Origin: a virus
Lineage: Duplodnaviria > Caudoviricetes
DNA: 31,662 nucleotides
Direction: 5' to 3' (one strand)
Virus record (IMG/VR): IMGVR_UViG_3300050159_000014
Span: 1-31,662 of that record
The first letter of the stretch is position 1, and each line of letters starts with the position of its first letter. The notes under the pieces are model-generated. The model saw only the letters and a program-made list of their open reading frames with translations, was not told where the DNA came from and did no database searches. A program made the translations under genes and the position numbers. This document shows positions 4,767 through 17,255 of this stretch, piece by piece.

Positions 4767-5012
4767 CTATAGACCTGCTTGCTTTCTACGGATTTCTCTT
4801 AACATTGACCCTGTATATTTGCTGTTCTTGTTCCATCCAACAAAACGGTTAATGTTAACTTTTTTACCGCCGGGAGCATCTTGTTGACCCACAATAATCC
4901 AGTTAGTCTTCTGAGAAAATTCTTCCCAGTTTGTAACATTAAGATCCCCGTCGATAATAGGCTTCAATTGAGTTGGTTGATCTAAAGTGGTTTCTTCTTC
5001 GTTATTATTCAT
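4767..5012 (-). CDS. Hypothetical protein
   Basis: 81-aa ORF tightly packed in the operon. Confidence 0.7.
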   Translation of the reverse strand: MNNNEEETTLDQPTQLKPIIDGDLNVTNWEEFSQKTNWIIVGQQDAPGGKKVNINRFVGWNKNSKYTGSMLREIRRKQAGL

Positions 5013-5016
5013 TTTA

Positions 5017-5247
5017 TTAAATATCCTTTACTGTTATTAATATTAGAATTGATTTGAAATTTGTTTCTGATTCATACACATACTGTCCAGTTTGTTTCAT
5101 CTTAAATGCGTCTACAAATTCATTATAGTCGATGTCCATCTCTAAGAATGATTTAGCCTTATTATAAATGTCCTCAATGTTGTTAGAAGAAAACAATAAA
5201 GCATACTTTGCAGGTATTGTAGTGTCGAATATAGTATATAAAATCAT
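5017..5247 (-). CDS. Hypothetical protein
   Basis: 76-aa ORF immediately after gp46. Confidence 0.7.
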   Translation of the reverse strand: MILYTIFDTTIPAKYALLFSSNNIEDIYNKAKSFLEMDIDYNEFVDAFKMKQTGQYVYESETNFKSILILITVKDI

Positions 5248-5248
5248 T

Positions 5249-6941
5249 TTATGGTTGACCTTGTATTGTTGCTGGTGGTTTTATTCTTGAAAAATTCCCG
5301 TGTTTTTCCATTTCTATGACAGATCTTACTTTAGATGTTAAATCTGTCTTGTGGCTGACTATAAACACGTTTGTATTTGGTCCACAATTCGTTAGAATAT
5401 TTAGAAATTCTTCAGTTGCATTAGCGTCTAGACTACTATCGAACACTTCATCTAAAAATAATAAATTTGTATTTGTAGTATTCTTAGCCTTAGCGATTTC
5501 TCTCCAAGTTAAGAGAAGAGCATTGTCAATTCTACATTTTTCTCCCTCGCTGAAGATCATGTATTTAAACTTATCTCTATAACGAGACTGAATGACTTCG
5601 TCAAAGTTTTCATCCAATGTAAACTGAATAGGTAATCCCAAGAGATTTAAGTATTCATTGACATGGAAATTAATCTGAGGAATATACTGCTCTATGATCT
5701 TAGCTTTAATTCCATCATCTTTCAACAATTTTTGAACGATATCGTAACGTTGCTTTACCTTATCTTGCTGATCATATAACGACTTAACAGTTTGAATCTC
5801 TTGTTCTAGAATACTAAGATCAGTAAGATTCTTTGAAGTATTGTTTAGAAGTTCTGTTATATCATTTTCTATAGAAGCTTTAGAATTTGTTAAAAACTTC
5901 TTTCTAGATAGTTCATCAGCTAGTTTCTGTTTGAGATCTTGAATCAATGCAGATGCTTTGTTATTGTCTGCTATAATGACATCTAAAGCTTTAATATCCT
6001 CAGCTAATTGGTGATCTACTTCATTGTACTTACTAACGTTGCCTGTCAGGCTATTGATAACATTAGATTTATGATTAGGATCTATATTTTGCTTACAAGA
6101 CGGGCAGGCATCATGAGACGTAAAGAATTCCATGTTCTCCAACTCAGTCTTGATACGACCTTCTAGAGTATATTTTAATTTTCTCTTATTGTCCCTTAGA
6201 ATAGTATACTTATCATCTATCTGAGATGCTATCGAAGCTATCTGTGTAGTTAATTGATCTATCTGAGCTTCATTTCCTTCTAAATCAACCTCAATAGATT
6301 TCAGAGAGGATTCTAGAGAAGACTTTTTGACTAAAGAGTCTTGATGCTTTTTTCTCTTGTAGAAGGGAGTATTTAGATTCAAGATCCTTTAATGTCTCAT
6401 TTACAGAAGACAGCTTCCCTTTCAGAAGAATATTCATAGTAGAAAAGATTTTAATATCTAGGAGATCTTCAATAACTTCTCGTCTCTTAGATGTATCCAG
6501 TTGCATAAAAGGAACGTAATTGGCAGATCCGATTAAGACAATCTGTTTAAATGCGTTTTCATTCATTCCTAAAATAATAGTTTCTAGAAACTCCTGATAA
6601 TCTCTAGTATCAGATGCTTGATTGAGTAGTTTAGAATCTTCGTAAATCTCAAAGATGTTTGGTTTAATTCCTCTGATAATTCTATAGTGTTTACCCTTGG
6701 AAGTAAAATTCAATTCAACTTCAAGACCTTTACCGTTTATAGAATTTACAAGATCAGGTTTATTAATTTTCCTATAAGGTTTGCCGTAGAGAGCAAAATT
6801 AATCCCGTCCAATACCAAGCTTTTACCGGCTCCATTGGAACCTATAATCACAGTTGTTGGAGACTTATCTAAAACAATCTCAACAGGCGTATTGCCTACT
6901 GATAAGAAATTTTTAACTTTAATAGAGTGAAAATGAATCAT
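5249..6941 (-). CDS. 46: gp46 recombination ATPase (Rad50/SbcC-like), interrupted by a one-base frame break near 6350
   Basis: Walker A GSNGAGKS is in 6291..6941; the CPSC zinc hook, FSEGE signature, LLFLDE Walker B and SHK are in 5249..6382. The span of 1693 nt equals 564 codons + 1 nt. Confidence 0.93.
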
Positions 6942-6942
6942 T

Positions 6943-7992
6943 TTATATAACAGAAGCCTCTAAATAAAGATTGTCTAAGATTTTTTTAATTTCATCTTTT
7001 TCGAGAGTATTGTCATTAATATTATCAACATAATCATTCATAAGATCTCTAGTTGAACTGCTGGTTGCTGTAAATGATGTTGGAGTTATATTAACGTAAA
7101 GAGTTGTATCATACACTACTAAATCGATAGTATCAACCTTGTAAAGAGTATCTATAAATTTATCATATTTTTTTAAGTCGGTTTTGACAGAAACGTGAAC
7201 TTGTACAAACTTCCCTTTATAATCATTATAGGGAAACGACCTTTCGTCAATAGTATTTTCATCGTAAAAAATCTTTTCAAATAAAGTATGAGGATTCCTA
7301 ACAAAAGTTACTTGCTGCGTGTCCGTATCGAACACAGAGAATCCTCTAGGGCATCCATAATCCGCCCAAGAAAACTCTGTAGGGGCTCCTAGATATTTAA
7401 TATTATCTTGTTCAGATGGTTGGTGAAAATGTCCAGTCCAAACCTCTTTATATTTCTTAAACAACGCTCTATCCATTCCGTGCTCATTTTTAATACCGGA
7501 ATGCATCTCGAATCCTGCTAGCTCTAGATGACCATACAAGAACTCAGCATTGTCTTTTTGAACATATCTCATAAAATCATGATAGTTAGAATTATTCAAC
7601 CAAGGAAGCATTGTGATATTAACTTCTTCGAATTTAAGAGTTTTAGGTTCTTCAATGATCTCTATATTATCATAAGATGTTAAAAGCTCGTTGATAGAGG
7701 ATACATCATTTACGTTTTTGAAATGGACATCATGGTTCCCCGGAATCATATACATCTTAATCCCGGCAGCCTTTAGAGGATCAAAGAACATCCTTTTAGA
7801 TTTTCGGAGAGATAGTATATTGATTTCCTTGCGGTCATCAAACGTATCTCCACCGTTTAATACGACCTTGATATTATTAGCCTTTAAATATGGAAAGAAT
7901 ATAGTATCATAGAACTTCTTCTGATAATCCTGCATCCATATAGCAGAACTTCTAGCATCAAAGTGGATGTCGTTAATCAGCGCTATCTTCAT
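6943..7992 (-). CDS. 47: gp47 recombination nuclease (Mre11/SbcD-like)
   Basis: DIHF, GDTFD, GNHD, GH and GHFH metallophosphoesterase motifs; adjacent to gp46. Confidence 0.95.
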   Translation of the reverse strand: MKIALINDIHFDARSSAIWMQDYQKKFYDTIFFPYLKANNIKVVLNGGDTFDDRKEINILSLRKSKRMFFDPLKAAGIKMYMIPGNHDVHFKNVNDVSSINELLTSYDNIEIIEEPKTLKFEEVNITMLPWLNNSNYHDFMRYVQKDNAEFLYGHLELAGFEMHSGIKNEHGMDRALFKKYKEVWTGHFHQPSEQDNIKYLGAPTEFSWADYGCPRGFSVFDTDTQQVTFVRNPHTLFEKIFYDENTIDERSFPYNDYKGKFVQVHVSVKTDLKKYDKFIDTLYKVDTIDLVVYDTTLYVNITPTSFTATSSSTRDLMNDYVDNINDNTLEKDEIKKILDNLYLEASVI

Positions 7993-8677
7993 CTTCTACA
8001 AATTCCTCTATATTATAAAAAACTTCTTCATCATTTACGAAAGAATCTATAATAGCAGGAGAATCATCTACAGTCAAGCTCTCTAATTGTTTAATGATCT
8101 CTTCTTTGTCTTTCATCTTTTGTTGATGAAACTTTGTCATCTTTTTGAGAGGTTTGAACTTATCATCTACACCTTTTGTAACGTTATCGACATGTTCCTT
8201 GAGAAAATCTAGATATGTATTTGTATATTCCGCATCGTCGGATCCTTGTTGGATACTATCCATACTATCTAAAATACCAGAGTTCTTTACAATCTCTGCT
8301 TTAATTTCCTTCTGCTTTTTCTCCGCCTTTAAACGTCTTACAGCAGCAAAATAAGCTATTTGTGTGAAATATGCAAAAGGATTCATAGACTTTGCTGGAT
8401 CAAATCTATAGAACGATCTGATACAATTCTCTATACCGTCCCCAATCATTTCATCTTTATACGAATAATTACAGAAATTTGGAGATTTCATTAGATTGTT
8501 GCAAATTAATAAGACAGCTTCCCCTATGTAATTAGGAAGCCTCGGCTGAGGTTTGTTGTGAAGTAGAGCTAATTCAATATCATTATAATGATCTATAATA
8601 GCATTATAGAGTTCTATATTGTTTATATAATCGTTTTTAGGCTTTCTTTTAGCAACTTGTTTTACAGGTTTGTTCAT
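7973..8677 (-). CDS. 55: gp55 late-transcription sigma factor
   Basis: YINNxELY, YIGE, PNFxNYSYKDEMIGDGIENC and NPFAYFTQIAYFA. Confidence 0.95.
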   Translation of the reverse strand: MNKPVKQVAKRKPKNDYINNIELYNAIIDHYNDIELALLHNKPQPRLPNYIGEAVLLICNNLMKSPNFCNYSYKDEMIGDGIENCIRSFYRFDPAKSMNPFAYFTQIAYFAAVRRLKAEKKQKEIKAEIVKNSGILDSMDSIQQGSDDAEYTNTYLDFLKEHVDNVTKGVDDKFKPLKKMTKFHQQKMKDKEEIIKQLESLTVDDSPAIIDSFVNDEEVFYNIEEFVEDEDSAD

Positions 8678-8880
8678 TGATTTTCTATAGTTAATTAGTT
8701 GTTATTAGTATACAATTTTATTATAGAAAATATATTATATAAACTCAACTAAAATAACTGTTGAACAATTATACTTTTTATATTATAATCATTAAGTATT
8801 TAATGAAATGGTGTAAATATCTTAAAGTTTCTTTAAAGAAATCTTATAAGATCTTCTTGGAAATAATTTCTAAACACCAG

Positions 8881-8908
8881 TTGACTCCTTCAAAAACCTC
8901 TATATTAT
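8881..8908 (+). promoter_or_regulatory. Sigma70-like early promoter in the divergent intergenic region
   Basis: TTGACT-N16-TATTAT. A second candidate, TTGAAC-N17-TATAAT, lies at 8761-8789. Confidence 0.55.
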
Positions 8909-8962
8909 ATTTTTATAAGTTAAATCTATCAAACATAAATTATATAATTACGGAGAATCAAA

Positions 8963-9379
8963 ATGACTTTAAAAGTATCACACAAAGAAAATAACGTAGT
9001 ATTTTTGTCTGCTAAGACAAACCTTATGGACACGTTAGAAGAAATCTTAACATCTCCTTCTGAACAATTAATCAACGATACTTTTGAGTTCTCTGCTGAA
9101 GATTTCTACGATGAAGTTGATCCCTTGGATATTATTATAGAAGACCTTATTGCTACTAACATCTTTAGTGCAGGTGCTAATGATTTAGGGAAAGCCTGTG
9201 AATCAATAGAACTTTATTTGGGAGAGCGCCAGGCGATTATAGATTATATTCCTAACAGAAACATTTCAGGAATTAGACTGCTCGTATCTACCCCTGTAGG
9301 AGATTCCTTGATTGTTCATAATCCTGTACAATGTTCTGATATTGAATTTGGAGGTTTTATTGATCTTGTTGAGGAATAA
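8963..9379 (+). CDS. Acidic hypothetical protein
   Basis: GGAG RBS; first gene after the promoter; 138 aa. Confidence 0.75.
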   Translation: MTLKVSHKENNVVFLSAKTNLMDTLEEILTSPSEQLINDTFEFSAEDFYDEVDPLDIIIEDLIATNIFSAGANDLGKACESIELYLGERQAIIDYIPNRNISGIRLLVSTPVGDSLIVHNPVQCSDIEFGGFIDLVEE

Positions 9380-9416
9380 ATATCTTCGACAAAATTAACA
9401 TTAGAGGATTCATCGG

Positions 9417-10043
9417 ATGGTATCTCCAGAAATCGAATACGAGATTAAAATATTAGGAGCCTTCCCTGTGCTAACAGAGGCTTTTAATAGGTTCACTAGA
9501 GGATCTAGTGTTATAAGAGACAGATCTTATAACTTTGACACTATTTACTTGGATACTCTGGATTCTCATATCGAATCTCTAGGATACTCTCTTAGGCATA
9601 GACCTAAACAGTACCCGTTTGGAGATAGTCTTGATCTTAAACAGCTGAACGGAGAAGGAAGATCTGAAATATGTATCAGAGACGATAAACCTTTAGAGCA
9701 GCTTTACACAGAACTGAGCAAGCATTATAGACAAACACTCCCTCCTATAGATAGTTTGATAGAAACATTTACAACAAGTGTCCTCAGAAGAGAATATACA
9801 GCTCTTGTTCCTATAGCAGGAAAGCATATAACTCTTGAGGGGTCTTTGGACCGTATCAAGTATGTTAGAAACGGTAGAGTGTTTGCTGAACAGGATGAAT
9901 TAGAAGTAGAAATTAAACCAGGATTCTCTATGGATCTTTCTGAGGTGTTTGATTATTCTAAAAATAAGTTGACATCTGGGCTAGATGTAGTTTATACTAC
10001 AATGTCAAAAGCTTCTAGAGCTAGAGATTTTTTAAGGGGCTGA
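9417..10043 (+). CDS. CYTH-domain (triphosphate tunnel metalloenzyme) protein
   Basis: N-terminal EYEIK (ExExK-like), IYLDT, GYSLRHR, SLD, ELEVEIK and C-terminal SKASRA. Confidence 0.85.
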   Translation: MVSPEIEYEIKILGAFPVLTEAFNRFTRGSSVIRDRSYNFDTIYLDTLDSHIESLGYSLRHRPKQYPFGDSLDLKQLNGEGRSEICIRDDKPLEQLYTELSKHYRQTLPPIDSLIETFTTSVLRREYTALVPIAGKHITLEGSLDRIKYVRNGRVFAEQDELEVEIKPGFSMDLSEVFDYSKNKLTSGLDVVYTTMSKASRARDFLRG

Positions 10044-10105
10044 ACGGATTGATTCACTGTAGAAATACAGGAGAAGACGCGGGCTCGTTACCCGCCAGTT
10101 CCACC
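10036..10105 (+). ncRNA. tmRNA tRNA-like domain only (mini-tmRNA, no message domain)
   Basis: Acceptor stem GGGGCTG (10036-42) / CAGTTCC (10096-102) with G3-U70 and discriminator A, then CC. Stemless D-loop AACGGATTGA. P2 reduced to TTC-A-CTGTA-GAAA-TACAG-GA-GAA. GAC linker. T arm GCGGG-CTCGTTA-CCCGC. The layout matches the two ends of bacterial ssrA. Confidence 0.85.
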
Positions 10106-10125
10106 CTCAATGTATAGGATATAAA

Positions 10126-10488
10126 ATGACAATAATGATAGACGAATTTCTTCAATGGTTTGAAGGATTTAAAGATGGTGTGGATAGTATAAACAACAGC
10201 ACTATCACTCCAAAACAATGGGAAATTCTCAAGAGAAAACTTCAACAAGTAGCTGATAGTGAACGGAAAATAGCTGTACCTCCTCAATCTCCTTCTTACC
10301 CTCCTATATCATATCCTAATAACAGAGGGTATCATTTCGGAGATTATTTGCGGTCATATCCTATGTGCGCAACGACAGCAGGAGCAATAGGGTCTGCGGT
10401 AGACTCTCACGAAGGCTCTTTGATTGTTAAAGCAAAGCAGGATGCTGTAGATAGAGCTATAGAAAGAGCTTCTAAACGAAAATGGTAG
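10126..10488 (+). CDS. Hypothetical protein
   Basis: AGGA RBS; N-terminal FLQWFEGF...TPKQWEILKRKL followed by a Pro-rich tail. Confidence 0.75.
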   Translation: MTIMIDEFLQWFEGFKDGVDSINNSTITPKQWEILKRKLQQVADSERKIAVPPQSPSYPPISYPNNRGYHFGDYLRSYPMCATTAGAIGSAVDSHEGSLIVKAKQDAVDRAIERASKRKW

Positions 10489-10769
10489 ATTTTAAAAGAC
10501 TAGGGATATATCTAGGAATTGCAGTGTTTAGACGACAGTTGTGTATTCATATTACTCCATTTATCTGGAGAAAATTATATGTATTTGTACCTGATAAACA
10601 TTTAATAACATGCCCTGCAGATTCATTGCACCCATACGCTATATTTTGCGGACCGTTTCATATTTGGAATTTTAATCCTAATGATATGTTTGAAATATCT
10701 CTAGATGTTAATTTTAAAGCTCTTTCATACATTCCGACTGAATTCTATGGAATTAAGAGAATTTTATAG
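10482..10769 (+). CDS. Hypothetical protein
   Basis: 95-aa ORF overlapping the previous stop. Confidence 0.6.
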   Translation: MVDFKRLGIYLGIAVFRRQLCIHITPFIWRKLYVFVPDKHLITCPADSLHPYAIFCGPFHIWNFNPNDMFEISLDVNFKALSYIPTEFYGIKRIL

Positions 10770-10800
10770 TTGATTTTATATCTTTTAAAAGATATAAATA
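10770..10800 (+). promoter_or_regulatory. Composite sigma70-like and T4 late promoter overlapped by a palindrome
   Basis: TTGATT-N17-TATAAA; TATAAATA at 10793-10800; perfect palindrome TATATCTTTT/AAAAGATATA at 10777-10796. Confidence 0.7.
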
Positions 10801-10803
10801 TTA

Positions 10804-10931
10804 TTAGACGCAAATGAAAACATTCGCCAGTTTTATAAAGTAGCTGCATAGTCTCTAACGACTCTATGAAGTGAAACATATAGCAGAGTTTTTTGATAGT
10901 TTTTTCTTGGTACCAGAATTAAAAATATCAA
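10804..10931 (+). ncRNA. Stand-alone tmRNA message-like domain with tag frame ANENIRQFYKVAA-stop
   Basis: TAGAC (10805-09) precedes the resume codon GCA (E. coli has UAGUC-GCA). The frame 10810-10851 begins ANEN and ends VAA-stop. Hairpin CATAGTC/GACTCTATG covers the stop. A 3' stem TTGATAGTTTTT/AAAAATATCAA encloses CTTGGTACCAGAA. Confidence 0.75.
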
Positions 10932-10940
10932 CCTTTTAAT

Positions 10941-10975
10941 AAGCAGTTTTTAGAAATAGAAACTGTTTTCTTTTA
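10941..10975 (+). terminator. Intrinsic terminator candidate closing the message-domain RNA
   Basis: AAGCAGTTT...AAACTGTTT stem followed by TCTTTT. Confidence 0.55.
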
Positions 10976-11000
10976 TTTAACTTTTGACAAAGGACTTATT

Positions 11001-11285
11001 ATGATTCACAAATACTCGATTAAAATGTCTCTGGACTATATGGATGATAAAAACAATATTGTATCTACTGGAGAACTTATTGTTGGCAAGGCTCATACTC
11101 TAGAAGAAGCTTCGGAGATGTTGGAAGATACCAAGCACAGCTTTGTAGATCTTAGTTACGGAATTTCCAATAACGAAAATGTTAATTACAAACGCCGTAA
11201 AGTTCACACTAATAATTTTCTAGCAATGACCTCTAACGGATCTGTCCGTGAAGCTATCAAGACAATTGAAATTATAGAAAATTAA
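11001..11285 (+). CDS. Hypothetical protein
   Basis: AAGGA RBS; 94 aa. Confidence 0.75.
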   Translation: MIHKYSIKMSLDYMDDKNNIVSTGELIVGKAHTLEEASEMLEDTKHSFVDLSYGISNNENVNYKRRKVHTNNFLAMTSNGSVREAIKTIEIIEN

Positions 11286-11344
11286 GCTTATACTTTTATT
11301 TAATTTTGAGAATATATAAACTTAAACAGAGGAATCGAAATAAT

Positions 11345-11674
11345 ATGAATGAGATTTTAGAAAAATTAGAAAATGAGATCAATAAAGAGGATAACGAAAA
11401 ACAACGAATCCAGAATCAATTAGGATCCACTCCTGGTTCGAATCAAGAAGTTAAGGCCATCAAAGCAAAGTTCAGTCAAATCATTTATTCTAATAAATTG
11501 ATTAAAGACGAGCAAGAAGCTAAGAAAGATATCTTCAAGGCTCTTGATACTGATCACGGAATTCCGGTAAAGATTGCTAAGAAAGTTGAAAAACTGTTAG
11601 AAAAAGGATCTGTTACAGAGTTCAACGAAGAAATGGCAGCTATCGAACAACTCTATGAAAAAGTTAGATCCTAG
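11345..11674 (+). CDS. T4 DsbA-like double-stranded DNA-binding protein
   Basis: Helical pattern KDI...HGIPVKIAKK...F.EE...IEQLYEKV parallels T4 DsbA; start moved to the ATG at 11345. Confidence 0.65.
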   Translation: MNEILEKLENEINKEDNEKQRIQNQLGSTPGSNQEVKAIKAKFSQIIYSNKLIKDEQEAKKDIFKALDTDHGIPVKIAKKVEKLLEKGSVTEFNEEMAAIEQLYEKVRS

Positions 11675-12317
11675 TAATTTTATAAAACATGCACAGTCTC
11701 GGGTTAAGCAAAATAATCCCGAGACTGTTTTTTTGATTGGAGGAGGGAAAAGCCTTCTAGAATATCTTCCTGACAAGAATATTCTCAAAGATCAAAATGT
11801 TATAACAGCAAACGATGGTTATTTACTGTTTCCTGAGGCTCTAGCATGTCATTTTGCTGATTGGGTATGGTTTGCTTGGAACCAGCAAAAACTCCTAGAA
11901 ACGTGTTTAAACGAAAATATATCGTGTTGTATCCATCAGGACATTGAAGTGTTTGCTAATTTGTACAATGAACTGGGAATTACTGTATTCCAGAGAGAGC
12001 AGCGTAAGAGTCTAACTAAGAATCCATGTTTTCTCAACGGAGGGAACACTGGACATCAGATAATCAATTTAGCGTATCATATAGGATTCAAGAATATCGT
12101 TTTATTGGGGTACGATTTAACTGAAGATCCTCAAACGCATTGGCATAATAACCATAGAAGACCTACTAATATTCAAAACTTTACAGATTTTATGATTCCA
12201 GAATTTAATACGTTGACTAATTGTAAAGATGATTATAATATAAACATCGTTAACATTAATAAGCGATCTGCTTTGAGATGTTTTGATTTTGGAGAACTCC
12301 AGCAATATTTGAAATAA
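11655..12317 (+). CDS. MAF/DUF115 (MptE-like, sialyltransferase-like fold) transferase
   Basis: VFLIGGGKSL, VITAND, GGNTGHQIINLAYHIGFKNIVLLGYD and IVNIN. Confidence 0.7.
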   Translation: MKKLDPSNFIKHAQSRVKQNNPETVFLIGGGKSLLEYLPDKNILKDQNVITANDGYLLFPEALACHFADWVWFAWNQQKLLETCLNENISCCIHQDIEVFANLYNELGITVFQREQRKSLTKNPCFLNGGNTGHQIINLAYHIGFKNIVLLGYDLTEDPQTHWHNNHRRPTNIQNFTDFMIPEFNTLTNCKDDYNINIVNINKRSALRCFDFGELQQYLK

Positions 12318-12329
12318 AAGGATCATATT

Positions 12330-12494
12330 ATGGATCAGATTAATGTCTCTAACCCTATTGTAGAAGCTATTAATAAGTGTGCGAATATACATCAGGTAGC
12401 TGGAGTATTATCCACTGTGAATTTTACAGAATATCATCCACAATATGCTCTAGATATTATCAATGCAATAATGGCAAAATCAGATGACAGCTAA
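12330..12494 (+). CDS. Small hypothetical protein (not in ORF track)
   Basis: AAGGA RBS; MDQINVSNPIVEAINKCANIHQVAGVLSTVNFTEYHPQYALDIINAIMAKSDDS (54 aa). Confidence 0.65.
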   Translation: MDQINVSNPIVEAINKCANIHQVAGVLSTVNFTEYHPQYALDIINAIMAKSDDS

Positions 12495-12593
12495 CCACAT
12501 CCTAGATGTAGTCGTTGCAATAATACAGGAACGTGGGGAGGAGTCGACGGTCATTTATTTGATTGCGAAGATTGTAAGGATACTTCAGTATAA
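12484..12593 (+). CDS. Tiny zinc-finger protein; start is one base out of frame
   Basis: The frame 12495-12593 reads PHPRCSRCNNTGTWGGVDGHLFDCEDCKDTSV (CxxC...CxxC). The ATG at 12484 joins it if one A is added at 12493-94. Confidence 0.5.
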
Positions 12594-12604
12594 AGGAATA
12601 AACT

Positions 12605-12793
12605 ATGAAACATTCGACGGAAATTGAGTTAGACAGGCTTCTTGCTGAATATCAAAAACTCCCTCCTGAAAAACTCACCGAAGCATTAAAATGTGTGGAA
12701 CAAGATATGGCGGATGCTTTGTTGGAAGGTAACGAATACCGGGCGATTAGGTTATCAGCTTTTATAACACAAGCTCGTAAATCTAAACAATAA
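12605..12793 (+). CDS. Hypothetical protein
   Basis: AAGGA RBS; 62 aa, helical. Confidence 0.7.
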   Translation: MKHSTEIELDRLLAEYQKLPPEKLTEALKCVEQDMADALLEGNEYRAIRLSAFITQARKSKQ

Positions 12794-12820
12794 TAAATGT
12801 ATAAGAATTAAGGAATTAAA

Positions 12821-13420
12821 ATGATGAATAATTATCCAGATAAAATTTATCTGAAAGGTCATATATTCGAAGGAGATTTTTATCAGGAGGATTTTTCGTT
12901 TTCTAGTGTTGATGGATACGTTGAGTATATTCGTGAGTCGAAACCCCTCACACAGCCTAATCAGACGTTGATTGAGGCTTTCAGCGATTCGTGTGTTGCT
13001 TGTGGTAAGAATGCTTCCAATATTGCTTCAAACATGGAGGCTGGTGTTTGTTTTTATGATGGAAAACAACGCATAATTCACAATAAATGCTTAGTAAAAT
13101 TGATTGCAGAGAAAAACAAGAACCTGTCGACAAAAATGATGCTGGATGCTTTGAAGGCAATAGTTGATTTTGATGATACGGATTTTATTACTGATATGTC
13201 AGATGGTGTAGATTCATGGCAATCCAATGGCCTTTCCAGTTTAATAAGTAAAGCTCGTGAAGCAATCGCCGCCGCATCGTCCGCACCTGTTGTGGAGGTT
13301 GTTCATGGCTTAGAAGAAGCATTAAAAGCGTCTGAAACTTACGGTGAATCGCGAAGAAACAATTGGGATATGAAAGCGATATTAGAAGCCGCTCCTTCAA
13401 CTCGCACAGCAGAAAGGTAA
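12821..13420 (+). CDS. Mosaic hypothetical protein with a CxxC...HxxC segment
   Basis: AAGGA RBS; PDKIYL...VEYIR module, CVACG...HNKC and MLDALK...AREAIAAA. The C-terminus may really end at 13427 (LQLAQQKGNV in the +1 frame). Confidence 0.7.
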   Translation: MMNNYPDKIYLKGHIFEGDFYQEDFSFSSVDGYVEYIRESKPLTQPNQTLIEAFSDSCVACGKNASNIASNMEAGVCFYDGKQRIIHNKCLVKLIAEKNKNLSTKMMLDALKAIVDFDDTDFITDMSDGVDSWQSNGLSSLISKAREAIAAASSAPVVEVVHGLEEALKASETYGESRRNNWDMKAILEAAPSTRTAER

Positions 13421-13500
13421 TGTATGATGTTTCCATTCGCACTTTAGAAAATCGTAGACATTATTATTTTTATATTTTCAAGCATTGAGGTGACAATAAA

Positions 13501-14025
13501 ATGACCCAACCAACAAAAGACCAACTTATCGCCGCGAGGGATGCTATTTCTTCCTGTATAAATTTATCTGAAAATCCAAGAATGTCAGACGAAGAAAAAA
13601 TTATCTGGTCGCAAGGCACGACTTTGAAACCGTTTATCCATATCGGAACAATGAAAACAATCCGCACCCTCCTCGACTCCCATATCAACCCGCCTGATTT
13701 GGAGGGGTTGAAGCGGGAAGTTGTTTTGGACATTAGGAAAACACCAGAATTATTACATAAGCACCTTGGTTATAGTATGGAAGAAGTTGTCGGTCATATC
13801 ATAGACCACCTAGCCCCGCGAATTGTACGGGAGGGGTTCGTTGTTGTGCCAGAGGAGCCTACCGAAAAGCAATGGATCGAATACGCCAATGCTTGTCCCC
13901 CATTCACCACATATATGTTCGATGAATGCAAAATTTCCGCAATATGGAGAAACCAGTCTAGGACAGACCACATAGAGGCTTGTAAAAAATCTTACAAGGC
14001 TATGATTGCAGCAAGCAAGGGATAA
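13501..14025 (+). CDS. Phage hypothetical protein with GFVVVPxEPT...YKAMIAA module
   Basis: GAGGTG RBS; the C-terminal module is typical of mosaic accessory phage proteins. Confidence 0.75.
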   Translation: MTQPTKDQLIAARDAISSCINLSENPRMSDEEKIIWSQGTTLKPFIHIGTMKTIRTLLDSHINPPDLEGLKREVVLDIRKTPELLHKHLGYSMEEVVGHIIDHLAPRIVREGFVVVPEEPTEKQWIEYANACPPFTTYMFDECKISAIWRNQSRTDHIEACKKSYKAMIAASKG

Positions 14026-14171
14026 TGATGCCGATTATATTAAGCATTTTTCTGTTTATAGTAAATATTTTTATATCGTATATGAATTTTGGTTGTATTT
14101 CTTTTTTATCGATTGTAGCTTCGGGATTATTTGGAGTCATAATTTATTTTATGTTTGAGGGTATAAAATAA
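14025..14171 (+). CDS. Small membrane protein (not in ORF track)
   Basis: TAATG overlap; MMPIILSIFLFIVNIFISYMNFGCISFLSIVASGLFGVIIYFMFEGIK. Confidence 0.6.
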   Translation: MMPIILSIFLFIVNIFISYMNFGCISFLSIVASGLFGVIIYFMFEGIK

Positions 14172-14294
14172 ATGTTCTATAAATTTATTTGTAAAATTTT
14201 TGGTCATAATTTAATGAAAAATATTCCATCTTATTTTTCAAATAGGTATGGCTTTAAATGTCTTCGTTGTGGTGCAGTAATTAAGAAGGATTAA
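14172..14294 (+). CDS. DUF1660-like small zinc-binding phage protein (not in ORF track)
   Basis: GAGGG RBS; MFYKFICKIFGHNL...KCLRCG (CxxFGH...CxRCG). Confidence 0.65.
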   Translation: MFYKFICKIFGHNLMKNIPSYFSNRYGFKCLRCGAVIKKD

Positions 14295-14295
14295 A

Positions 14296-14886
14296 ATGAA
14301 AAAGATTATAATTTTACTCACAGGAAAACCTGGTTGCGGCAAAGACACCGTAGCTAATATTTTATCAGCTAACCAAATCAACCATCTAAAACTTGCAGAT
14401 CCTCTTATGAAGATTATGTATGCAATGTTTCCTAATTTTAATTATGAATACAATATTAAAATTAACAACGAGAGAGCTCTTAAAGAGTCTCCTAATGAAG
14501 TCTTCCTAGGAAAATCGTATAGAGAATGTATGATTTGGCTAGCTGAAGAGTGTATTAAACCGAAGTTTGGAAAAGATTTCTTTATTAATAATCTACTAGA
14601 ACGTATTGATAATAGTAATTTTCATATGTTTGTAGTATCAGATCTAGGATTTAAGAATGACGAGTTGTCTCATATTGATCCTAATAAATACAATGTAGCT
14701 GTCGTTAAAGTAACTAGAGACAATCTAGATAATATAAAAGACAGCCGTGAAGATATTAATGATGATATCTTCTTTACAATAGATAATAACGGATCTATAG
14801 AAGATCTGAAATTGCGTTGTAGTGTTCTAATGTCAATGATAGAGGATAGCTTACCAGATGACTTTAAACTACCTGTCTCCCAATAA
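14296..14886 (+). CDS. 1: Deoxynucleoside monophosphate kinase (gp1-like)
   Basis: GKPGCGKDT P-loop, LADPL, VVSD and IDNNGSIEDL. Confidence 0.88.
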   Translation: MKKIIILLTGKPGCGKDTVANILSANQINHLKLADPLMKIMYAMFPNFNYEYNIKINNERALKESPNEVFLGKSYRECMIWLAEECIKPKFGKDFFINNLLERIDNSNFHMFVVSDLGFKNDELSHIDPNKYNVAVVKVTRDNLDNIKDSREDINDDIFFTIDNNGSIEDLKLRCSVLMSMIEDSLPDDFKLPVSQ

Positions 14887-15322
14887 GATCAAGGTTATAA
14901 TTGGAAAGTTTCCTGATATCCAAATAACAGCTCAGAAGACAAATATCCCAGGGATAACGTTAAATCCTGTAAAGACCCCAGTTAATTCTAGTCACGATGC
15001 TTGGTTCCCTGGGGATAAGATTGAGTATGAAGATCTGATAGTAACATTTATAGTCGATACAAAACTTGCTGGGTATAAAGCTGTTAGAAGTTGGATGAAC
15101 GAGATCACCGGACAAGACGGGAAGAGACCTGAATACTTTTCCGATATTACTGTAGAGATCCTCAATAATCATTTTGGAATCAACCAAACAATCCAATACA
15201 AATATTGCATGCCTTACCAGATCACCGGAGCAGTTATGGATACTTCTATATCAGAAGAGACTCCTATAACATTCGATTGTGTTTTTAAATTCTCTGATAT
15301 GAATATTATTGATAATACATAA
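14858..15322 (+). CDS. 3: gp3 tail completion / tube terminator protein
   Basis: NYLSP...NIPGITL...PGDKIEYEDLIVTFIVD...WM. Confidence 0.85.
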   Translation: MTLNYLSPNKIKVIIGKFPDIQITAQKTNIPGITLNPVKTPVNSSHDAWFPGDKIEYEDLIVTFIVDTKLAGYKAVRSWMNEITGQDGKRPEYFSDITVEILNNHFGINQTIQYKYCMPYQITGAVMDTSISEETPITFDCVFKFSDMNIIDNT

Positions 15323-15337
15323 AAATTATAGTATACT

Positions 15338-15772
15338 ATGTCAATGACATTAGATGAATTATACTCCGAAATCTCCAAAGACTTTGATATAGACGTTACA
15401 GATCTCACAAGAGAAGCTGCTAAAGGGTCTTCTTTATTTGTTAAGTATATCAGATTATACTCAGACGAATCTATTAAATACGAATTAATGGAAAACAAAC
15501 GTAAAGAGCTTATAATTAAAAAAAGAGATTATTATTCAGGAAACGGCACTCCAGAAGAATATAAAGCTAAACCGTTCAGTTTAAAACTCCGCACAGATAC
15601 TGCGATCAATAAATATATAGAATCTGATCCTGAAGTTATTTTATATGATCAGAAAGTTCTAATCCAAAAACAAAGAGTTAGTATATTGAAAGAATGTATG
15701 GAAGAAATTCGTAGAAGATCTTTTACAATTAAAAACATTTTGGACCATCAGAAGTTTATAAACGGTGGATGA
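15338..15772 (+). CDS. uvsY: UvsY recombination mediator
   Basis: DFDID, YYSG...Y...PF.LK, YIESD and R.FTIKN; precedes uvsW. Confidence 0.9.
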   Translation: MSMTLDELYSEISKDFDIDVTDLTREAAKGSSLFVKYIRLYSDESIKYELMENKRKELIIKKRDYYSGNGTPEEYKAKPFSLKLRTDTAINKYIESDPEVILYDQKVLIQKQRVSILKECMEEIRRRSFTIKNILDHQKFINGG

Positions 15773-17255
15773 TCAAGAAACTATAAACATCTATGATTAT
15801 AATGAGACTTATATACAGCTAGACTCAGACCCTTCTGTTATGGCTGAGATTAGAGAGTATTTTACATTCGAAGCTAAGAATGCTAGATTCCATCCAAAGT
15901 TCAAGGCTAAGCAATGGGACGGCAGAATTAGGCTATTATCAGCAGTCAACAACACGATCTATAAAGGACTTATTCCTTACATAAAAGATTTCTGCGATGA
16001 ACGTGGATATAATTGTGAAATAGATCCAGCTATCTTAAAGACTCTCTCTGAAAATATTCAATTTGATATAGATCATCTTTTAAAATACGTTGATCCTGTA
16101 TTTCCTCCTTACGAATATCAAAAGAAAGCTATAGAGCATGCTATAAAAAGCACTAGATGTCTTCTACTGTCTCCTACAAGTTCTGGTAAATCGTTCATAA
16201 TATATCTGATGATGAGACATTACCTATCTGTGGGTCTCAGAGTTCTTCTCGTCGTTCCCTCTACTCATCTTGTAGAGCAGATGGTGTCAGATTTTAAAGA
16301 GTATCAACCAAGCTTTGATATTGACTATATAACCCATAAAATTTATGACGGGGCTGATAAACTCTCTCATAAACCCTTGACAGTCTCAACGTGGCAATCA
16401 ATAGTAAAGCAACCTAAGAAATACTTTAATGATAATTATGATGTTATAATAGTTGATGAAGCTCATAATTATAAAGGTGAAGAAGTTAGAAAAGTCTTAG
16501 AGTCTGCTGATCAGGTTAAGTATAAATTCGGACTCACTGGAACCTTGGATGATGTGGATATCCACAGATTCACTATAGAAGGCCTTCTAGGGAAATCCTT
16601 CACAGTCACTACAACTAGTGAAATGATAGGAGCAGGATTATCTTCGGATATATCAATTAAACCTATAGTGTTAGAATACGATCAAACCATAAGAGCTTCC
16701 AATAAAAAATTTGAATATAAAGATGAAGTTGAATTTGTAATAGGATGTCAAAAGAGAACTTCATATATTAGTAAACTAGCTCTACAACTAGCTCAAAAAA
16801 ACACAAATACTCTTATTCTAGCAGACAGAGTAGAACATGTAGAATCTCTTTATAATGAGATATCAAAGTATACTAGGAGAGTATACAAGGTAACAGGATC
16901 AGTCGATGTAAAAGAGCGCGAGAGGATCAGGAAGCTTGTTGAGTCTGAAGATGGTATAATTCTAATAGCTACATACGGGACATTTTCTACAGGTGTTAAT
17001 ATTAAGAATATCCAGAATATTATTTTTGCCTTTGCAGGAAAAGCTTACATCAGAACTCTACAATCCATAGGTAGAGGATTGAGACTTGACGGAAAATCTA
17101 ATAAGATGACTTTATACGATTTTATAGATGATTTTGGATTTATATCTAAAAACGGTAAAAAGGCTAATAATTATATATACGAACACGGAATAAAAAGACT
17201 TTCTATATACATGAAAAGCAAATTCAAATTTAATATAGTAAAAATCAAAATATAG
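15765..17255 (+). CDS. uvsW: UvsW DNA helicase
   Basis: WDGRIRL, SPTSSGKS, DEAH, GLTGT, FSTGVNI and LQSIGRGLR. Confidence 0.96.
   Translation: MDDQETINIYDYNETYIQLDSDPSVMAEIREYFTFEAKNARFHPKFKAKQWDGRIRLLSAVNNTIYKGLIPYIKDFCDERGYNCEIDPAILKTLSENIQFDIDHLLKYVDPVFPPYEYQKKAIEHAIKSTRCLLLSPTSSGKSFIIYLMMRHYLSVGLRVLLVVPSTHLVEQMVSDFKEYQPSFDIDYITHKIYDGADKLSHKPLTVSTWQSIVKQPKKYFNDNYDVIIVDEAHNYKGEEVRKVLESADQVKYKFGLTGTLDDVDIHRFTIEGLLGKSFTVTTTSEMIGAGLSSDISIKPIVLEYDQTIRASNKKFEYKDEVEFVIGCQKRTSYISKLALQLAQKNTNTLILADRVEHVESLYNEISKYTRRVYKVTGSVDVKERERIRKLVESEDGIILIATYGTFSTGVNIKNIQNIIFAFAGKAYIRTLQSIGRGLRLDGKSNKMTLYDFIDDFGFISKNGKKANNYIYEHGIKRLSIYMKSKFKFNIVKIKI

Follow-up and report, generated by a model that had tools for sequence, protein, structure and literature searches.

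Tagging tmRNAs have been described with carrier and message either on one molecule or on a base-paired pair, and their genes take three forms, standard, intron-containing and permuted, beside which stand forms without a coding sequence, including a 'Standard, no CDS' class of nine sequences and Jakoba mitochondrial and Mallomonadaceae plastid forms, in a database that has 79 phage sequences (Nawrocki 2025, PMC11915505). The tmRNA of Mycobacterium phage DS6A consists of the tRNA-like domain (TLD) alone (Hudson 2014, PMC4131195), and TLDs of this type are reported as tmRNA inhibitors (PMC4131195, PMC11915505); phage tmRNA genes are also described for phage Melnitz (Buchholz 2022, PMC9004378) and in PMC12656738, with no split form in the available parts of those two papers. 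The four nucleotides that precede the resume codon are bound by SmpB, and in the translocated state A86 stacks on its Tyr55 (PMC8363625). One SmpB bridges the TLD and the resume region, PK1 spacing does not set the frame, and a TLD with SmpB accepts the peptide and makes poly-alanine without a template (PMC3929946); in simulations, PK1 anchors the message during loading (PMC13692277). Within the openly accessible literature covered, neither a message-only gene nor an unlinked pair of TLD and message was found.

Here we describe a locus at which a tmRNA is probably encoded as two unlinked genes, one for a mini alanine-acceptor domain and one for a free tag message (Table 1). It lies in a stretch of viral DNA of 31,662 nucleotides (the window), a 31.7-kb fragment of a T4-like phage (CheckV completeness 17%) that carries gp46/47-like nucleases, UvsW/UvsY and baseplate genes. 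No close cultured relative of this phage was found (late sigma factor below 50% identity, tail tube below 30%), and the window is present in leaf-litter metagenomes. At 5249-6941 (- strand) the gp46-like SMC nuclease subunit appears to be spread over two ORFs that overlap, of 216 and 377 aa, which may reflect a frameshift or a split gene.

Table 1. Features of the two halves and of neighbouring genes, in window coordinates.
Feature	Position	Strand	Remarks
Late sigma factor	7973-8677		T4-like marker gene
CYTH-like gene	9417-10043		Pfam E 0.0009, below cut-off
Predicted promoter of TLD precursor, TTGACA-18-TATACT	9969-9998	+	sigma-70-like; 11/12 consensus match
Self-contained mini TLD of tmRNA	10036-10105	+	acceptor stem, D loop, short helix 2, T arm, A73-CC
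TLD acceptor stem	10036-10042/10096-10102	+	G3·U70 present, plus unusual G4·U69
TLD T arm	10079-10095	+	T loop non-canonical
TLD discriminator A	10103	+	
Encoded CC of TLD	10104-10105	+	terminal A must be added
120-aa ORF, likely filler	10126-10488	+	weak PHROG 28500 match, E 0.003
95-aa ORF, likely filler	10482-10769	+	no Pfam or PHROG family
Predicted message promoter, TTGATT-17-TATAAA	10770-10800	+	sigma-70-like; overlaps T4-type late promoter
T4-type late promoter TATAAATA	10793-10800	+	overlaps sigma-70-like site
Resume signal	10805-10809	+	U-5 and A-4, counterparts of E. coli U85 and A86
Tag reading frame ANENIRQFYKVAA-stop	10810-10851	+	13 codons, Ala-Ala-stop end; no in-frame start codon
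3' hairpin as in alphaproteobacterial two-piece tmRNA coding pieces	10893-10931	+	conserved loop 10906-10918
AU-rich terminator-like hairpin	10941-10968	+	12 bp, then T tract; fold only

The preliminary description of this DNA had named misassembly of an ordinary ssrA gene as a possible objection. Contigs from eight runs were compared, all of them 2025 leaf-litter metagenomes that may belong to one campaign, and no assembly joints were seen in the region. In runs X3 (9837-11405), X4 (9850-11150) and X5 (9850-10948) one contig spans both halves, with one difference each; contigs of X1 and X2, which are possible sources of the record (X3-X5 are not flagged as such), also bridge them, and those of X6, X7 and X8 cover pieces. 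With single contigs from separate runs bridging both halves, misassembly is ruled out.

Folding confirms a complete TLD in unpermuted order with both acceptor strands on one small RNA, as had been read from the sequence at the outset, and caps helix 2 with a short GAAA hairpin. Its G3·U70, A73 and CCA end (of which CC only is encoded) are those of a standard tmRNA, while a tag frame enclosed between the 5' and 3' TLD strands is absent, the tag standing 704 nt past the encoded CC; an unpermuted mini TLD without an internal tag frame is the DS6A type. The predicted TLD promoter is the joint best site in 8500-12500 and ends 37 nt before the domain. Among ten aligned TLD-only RNAs, 96.3% of cells are paired, 10 of 16 pairs have changed on both sides, and G3·U70 is present in all ten. 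No gene of the window was called by ARAGORN, and a search of 5000-17000 against Rfam returned no tmRNA, RF00023 included, at E<=1, so standard tools miss this gene; related TLDs reach 68.9 (L003), 56.3 (L047) and 43.7 bits (L065) against RF00023, for which the cut-off is 47.

The CYTH-like gene lies directly upstream of the TLD in the window and in two other phage contigs (L287 and L234); in the window its stop codon overlaps the TLD 5' end and the TLD promoter lies inside its end. Both protein ORFs that had been placed between the halves are present, and tblastn found no match for either in the ten other message loci described below.

The second half had been described as a promoter-to-terminator unit. 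Its promoter consensus, resume signal and tag frame stand; the putative terminator is partly supported, the hairpin being present in the fold and no terminator being called by the scan, this hairpin included. Three other TATAAATA sites occur in the window, upstream of ORFs in the structural-gene region. Assuming the usual promoter geometry, we take the first message base to be 10805 or 10806 (-5 or -4), and this predicted start falls at the base that SmpB grips; on the geometry we presume for T4 late promoters, loci with an 8-nt spacer would start at -3 and lose A(-4). The frame is preceded by an in-frame stop at -15, after which no start codon follows, and frames that lack a start codon but follow a resume signal are known to be read by trans-translation. 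A resume context with AN(D/E)N and AA-stop was observed once in the window and not at all in 150 Markov-3 simulations of it. No acceptor or helix-2 strand is present on the message, and ahead of the resume codon, where the promoter and an ORF end lie, there is neither a 5' acceptor motif nor a D-loop motif. The conserved 3' loop corresponds to the 3' end of the RF01849 consensus in Rfam, and a stem of 6-9 bp closes it in all 11 message units (shuffle p 0.0025-0.089, the window being weakest). From its motifs the RNA would appear to be of alphaproteobacterial origin.

Two other readings of the tag were rejected. That it is the C-terminus of an upstream protein is ruled out for the window by the stop at -15, and for six other units as well. 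The other is a mini-gene for a T4-type late small protein with an MKT-type N-terminus: the ATG frame in question (+1, MKTFASFIK) exists in the window only, relatives reading MITIS, TTML or TIII there.

By gene form, the locus belongs to neither the standard nor the permuted family, though it probably works like them. The permuted two-piece tmRNA (RF01849 alpha_tmRNA, RF04321; our scans yielded 139 complete phage genes that broadly take this form) shares with it the AN(D/E)N...AA tag type, the resume signal and 3' hairpin loop on the coding piece and, in the L255 TLD, an alpha-type T loop; an origin of the message from an alpha-type permuted coding piece is a connection the preliminary description had missed. 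That form is transcribed as one precursor, in which the acceptor piece comes first and the coding piece starts with the 5' acceptor strand, and its pieces are held by base pairing, whereas in the present locus a single small RNA carries both acceptor strands and the message, with its own predicted promoter, has neither acceptor strand nor PK1, no pairing having been found. Standard one-piece tmRNA (RF00023) has the same 5'-to-3' order of TLD strands, G3·U70, A73, resume rule and AA-ending tag; here, in contrast, the message lies outside the helix-2 loop and there is no pseudoknot ring. The DS6A and 'Standard, no CDS' RNAs are likewise unpermuted mini TLDs of ~65-80 nt with alanine identity and no tag, but none is described with the separate downstream tag gene seen in five loci here. 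Nine of the phage permuted genes (L120, L135, L169, L180, L188, L189, L193, L201 and L221) have ~43-50 nt from the 5' acceptor strand to the resume codon, too little room for PK1, which tempers the anchoring role that simulations give to PK1.

Message scans of viral contigs recovered ten further distinct units without a 5' acceptor strand (11 with the window; the near-duplicates L062 and L280 were left out of the count). Four of them (L287, L234, L255 and L273) are preceded at 192-265 nt by a TLD-only gene on the same strand, and in all five loci with a TLD-only gene this lies 190-770 nt upstream of the message; L234 and L287 being near-identical, the five represent four independent loci in two clades. 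What fills the gap differs: two ORFs in the window, and a tRNA, a 52-aa ORF or ~110 nt in the other four. The claim of a physical split is thereby supported by this layout in four other contigs, by the message's own promoter and by its lack of acceptor and helix-2 strands; a message lying downstream cannot remain joined to a TLD whose 3' CCA is free. CYTH/ORF94/DsbA-like/MptE-like synteny is common to the window and L287, at protein identities of only 32-63%, with 93/127 nt identical in the message and 397/627 in the CYTH gene; L287 and L234 keep the gene order of the window and not its two filler ORFs. A tRNA-like gene lies between TLD and message in L287 and L234, differing though the phages are near-identical, and ARAGORN gave no call for that of L287.

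Co-occurrence of the two halves, which had been proposed as a check, holds in part: the five loci have the TLD upstream, and against these stand four of the 11 messages (L277, L288, L247 and L235) with no TLD on contigs of 3.4-20.9 kb, three of which are estimated to be 7-12% complete, as well as 50 TLD-only contigs without a convincing message. The remaining two messages (L249 and L275) follow a complete permuted tmRNA or, at a contig end, its coding piece, of which they are eroded duplicates; in L249, L062 and L275 the duplicated coding piece has an eroded acceptor strand and an intact tag and hairpin. At L249 (=L060), L062, L275 (=L067) and L280 (=L069) this second coding piece lies downstream of the permuted tmRNA and a 69-aa ORF, and two different tags occur within one phage. 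Two other message-only candidates (L085 and L083) turned out to be complete permuted genes. In three contigs of 240-354 kb (L239, L251 and L263) a tag-like frame, ANEKFATIAA, lies close to tRNAs within an extended non-coding region, with no alpha 3' loop and no recognised TLD; these were excluded from the count and are possibly divergent tmRNAs.

Searches with blastn of three split-locus stretches, the window and L247 returned tRNAs, complete tmRNAs or chance matches only, and no cultured representative. Neither model matched in six isolate genomes (0/6, in a run with no positive control), and 0 of 16 promoter-plus-resume matches in bacterial genomes was a message. No smpB gene was found in the window or in the five fragmentary contigs searched, and for this reason host SmpB is assumed below.

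To place the message promoters in context, we used a control sample that was not selected for promoter, drawn from two scans, the second covering 120 of ~2600 stretches, and consisting of 142 distinct loci with at least 150 nt upstream (shorter ones were dropped): 139 complete genes, 12 of which were missed by the regular expression and classed by eye, and three orphans. TAAATA stands 7-11 nt before the resume codon in 3/3 orphan units and 1/139 complete genes of this sample. A sigma-70-like score of at least 9 with a -10 box ending 10-11 nt before the resume G was found in all six long-clade units, two of which (L234 and L235) were found only by a pattern requiring TAAATA, compared with 0/139 complete genes; the five short-clade units score 6.5-8.5. 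Scanning for promoter plus resume start with the tag end left free gave 29 matches, two of them with the 3' loop and an Ala-Ala-stop end, and neither feature in the remaining 27. Many complete permuted phage genes among L236-L290, a set selected for that motif, also have TAAATA 7-10 nt before the resume codon, where it could be an internal late promoter making a message-only RNA.

The tag frame itself shows several marks of constraint. The A at -4 is invariant in all 11 message-only units, and seven, the window included, have no in-frame start codon; the other four (L288, L277, L255 and L249) have one upstream, at no common position. Between L255 and L273, a one-base deletion in the tag frame is accompanied by a compensating insertion, and between L235 and L277 codon changes are four synonymous versus two non-synonymous (p 0.014, for one pair only). 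An in-frame Ala-Ala-stop ends the frame in 11/11 units with third positions free to vary, nine of the 11 having been found by patterns that require Ala-Ala-stop somewhere, though not necessarily in frame. The frame is by these marks under selection and hence likely translated.

Pairing between the halves finds no such support. A 6-bp complementarity, flagged at the outset as possibly chance, is just that: shuffles and non-cognate pairs of TLD and message do as well, the latter giving complementary matches of 5-7 nt, and neither the L287 nor the L234 TLD contains the window's 6-mer. Computationally, none of the five cognate pairs shows specific pairing, which is the outcome of the proposed interaction prediction; duplex energies lie within shuffle range (100-181 of 200 shuffles as good) and cofolding gains 0.5 kcal/mol at most.

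TLD-only RNAs are frequent elsewhere. Two pattern scans of viral contigs yielded 1 and 51 of them, ~66-83 nt long, in diverse phages (L002-L053); most of them have helix 2a, a small hairpin as cap and an internal loop rich in A. Within 2.5-3 kb of these 52 RNAs, a strong tag frame was found in the window only. When 50 of the 52 contigs were searched whole, pattern matches appeared in 2/50 and weak matches of the message model, which is biased to alpha-type messages, in 1/50, none convincing on inspection; among near-complete TLD-only records, 0/4 had a message. TLD-only RNAs thus often occur by themselves, like the RNA published for DS6A (Hudson 2014), a precedent that the preliminary description had overlooked.

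Taken together, we consider it somewhat more probable than otherwise that the two halves perform SmpB-bridged trans-translation together, with the message free. RNase P and 3' nucleases would trim the TLD precursor, and the TLD, its CCA completed, would be alanylated. With host SmpB and EF-Tu it would enter a stalled ribosome and take the nascent chain. Once translocation has emptied the mRNA channel, the free message would thread into it and dock on SmpB through A(-4); its predicted 5' end lies only 4-5 nt ahead of the resume codon and, being free, could enter without the pseudoknot ring. The ribosome would then add A-ANENIRQFYKVAA and stop, and the AA end would target the protein for proteolysis. 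The preliminary description had likewise proposed a message supplied in trans, by which the phage might control rescue and tagging separately. What would set this apart, and we put it at a little better than an even chance, is a ribosome that switches to a free RNA neither covalently joined nor base-paired to the carrier, with the frame set by the 5' end that the promoter defines, at the adenine bound by SmpB; interchangeable tags could then be loaded by one carrier, and in some phages the message may be loaded through a complete tmRNA.

Several observations count against a free message: the odd T loop and G4·U69 of the window TLD, the need for the message to compete by diffusion, the 50 message-less TLD-only contigs, the reported inhibition of tmRNA by the DS6A-type TLD, the anchoring by PK1 in simulations, the four of 11 messages without a TLD on their contig, and the two that follow a complete tmRNA instead. 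Some of them would suit a scheme in which both RNAs are decoys, the TLD titrating SmpB and inhibiting host trans-translation and the untranslated message binding the SmpB resume surface or another tmRNA partner. DS6A-type inhibition (PMC4131195, PMC11915505) speaks for it, as do the viral contigs, which yielded 52 TLD-only RNAs and, in the 50 searched, no message; a decoy, however, needs no open frame, and the compensating indels, the synonymous bias and the universal in-frame Ala-Ala-stop point to translation, which leaves it unlikely. A lower probability still attaches to host tmRNA loading the phage message in trans, so that the host tag is replaced, with the phage TLD a separate, optional inhibitor or helper. 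The messages without a TLD on their contig (L277, L247, L235 and L288) and the second messages beside a complete permuted tmRNA (L249, L062 and L275) speak for this, yet a free message should lose the competition against the tethered one of the host, the TLD-only gene, where present, keeps its upstream position in all five loci, and the contigs are fragmentary.

That the pieces are decaying relics of a broken permuted ssrA is improbable. The odd T loop and G4·U69 could be read as decay, and such genes do break, as the erosion of the acceptor strand in L249 and L062 shows; against this, both halves are kept across phages whose neighbouring proteins are 32-63% identical, the message is identical at 93/127 nt between the window and L287, against 397/627 for the CYTH gene, new promoters stand at a fixed distance from the resume codon, and the stems covary. 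The decay in relatives that had been raised as an objection to the split is contradicted by the same conservation, spacing and covariation. We regard as least probable, and very doubtful, that an ordinary two-piece tmRNA forms from the two transcripts by base pairing or ligation: the 6-nt complementary stretch would fit, but the duplex energies, the cofolding gain and the absence of the 6-mer from L287/L234 all stand against it, and no intron features were seen.

The arrangement with a free message likely arose when an alpha-type permuted gene was duplicated in tandem and two deletions followed. One deletion would have fused the 5' strand of one copy to the acceptor piece of the next, and the other would have removed the acceptor strand of the second coding piece; this would leave the TLD first and the message second on one strand, as in all five loci. 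The L249 and L062 loci look like the duplication intermediate.

If trans-translation with a free message is borne out, the template for a degradation tag need not be tethered to its tRNA-like carrier, which would offer a modular tagging tool and a new phage route to handle ribosome rescue. A natural unlinked pair makes it testable whether the tether is needed or whether SmpB and five upstream bases are enough to set the frame. TLD-only RNAs are in addition far commoner in phages than the one published case, and ARAGORN and Rfam miss such genes. Complete tmRNA genes also stand un-annotated in the GenBank records of cultured phages: permuted ones in Caulobacter phage phiCbK (L296:2470-2840), CcrColossus (L297) and S-CAM1 (L299), and a standard one in GodonK (L298).
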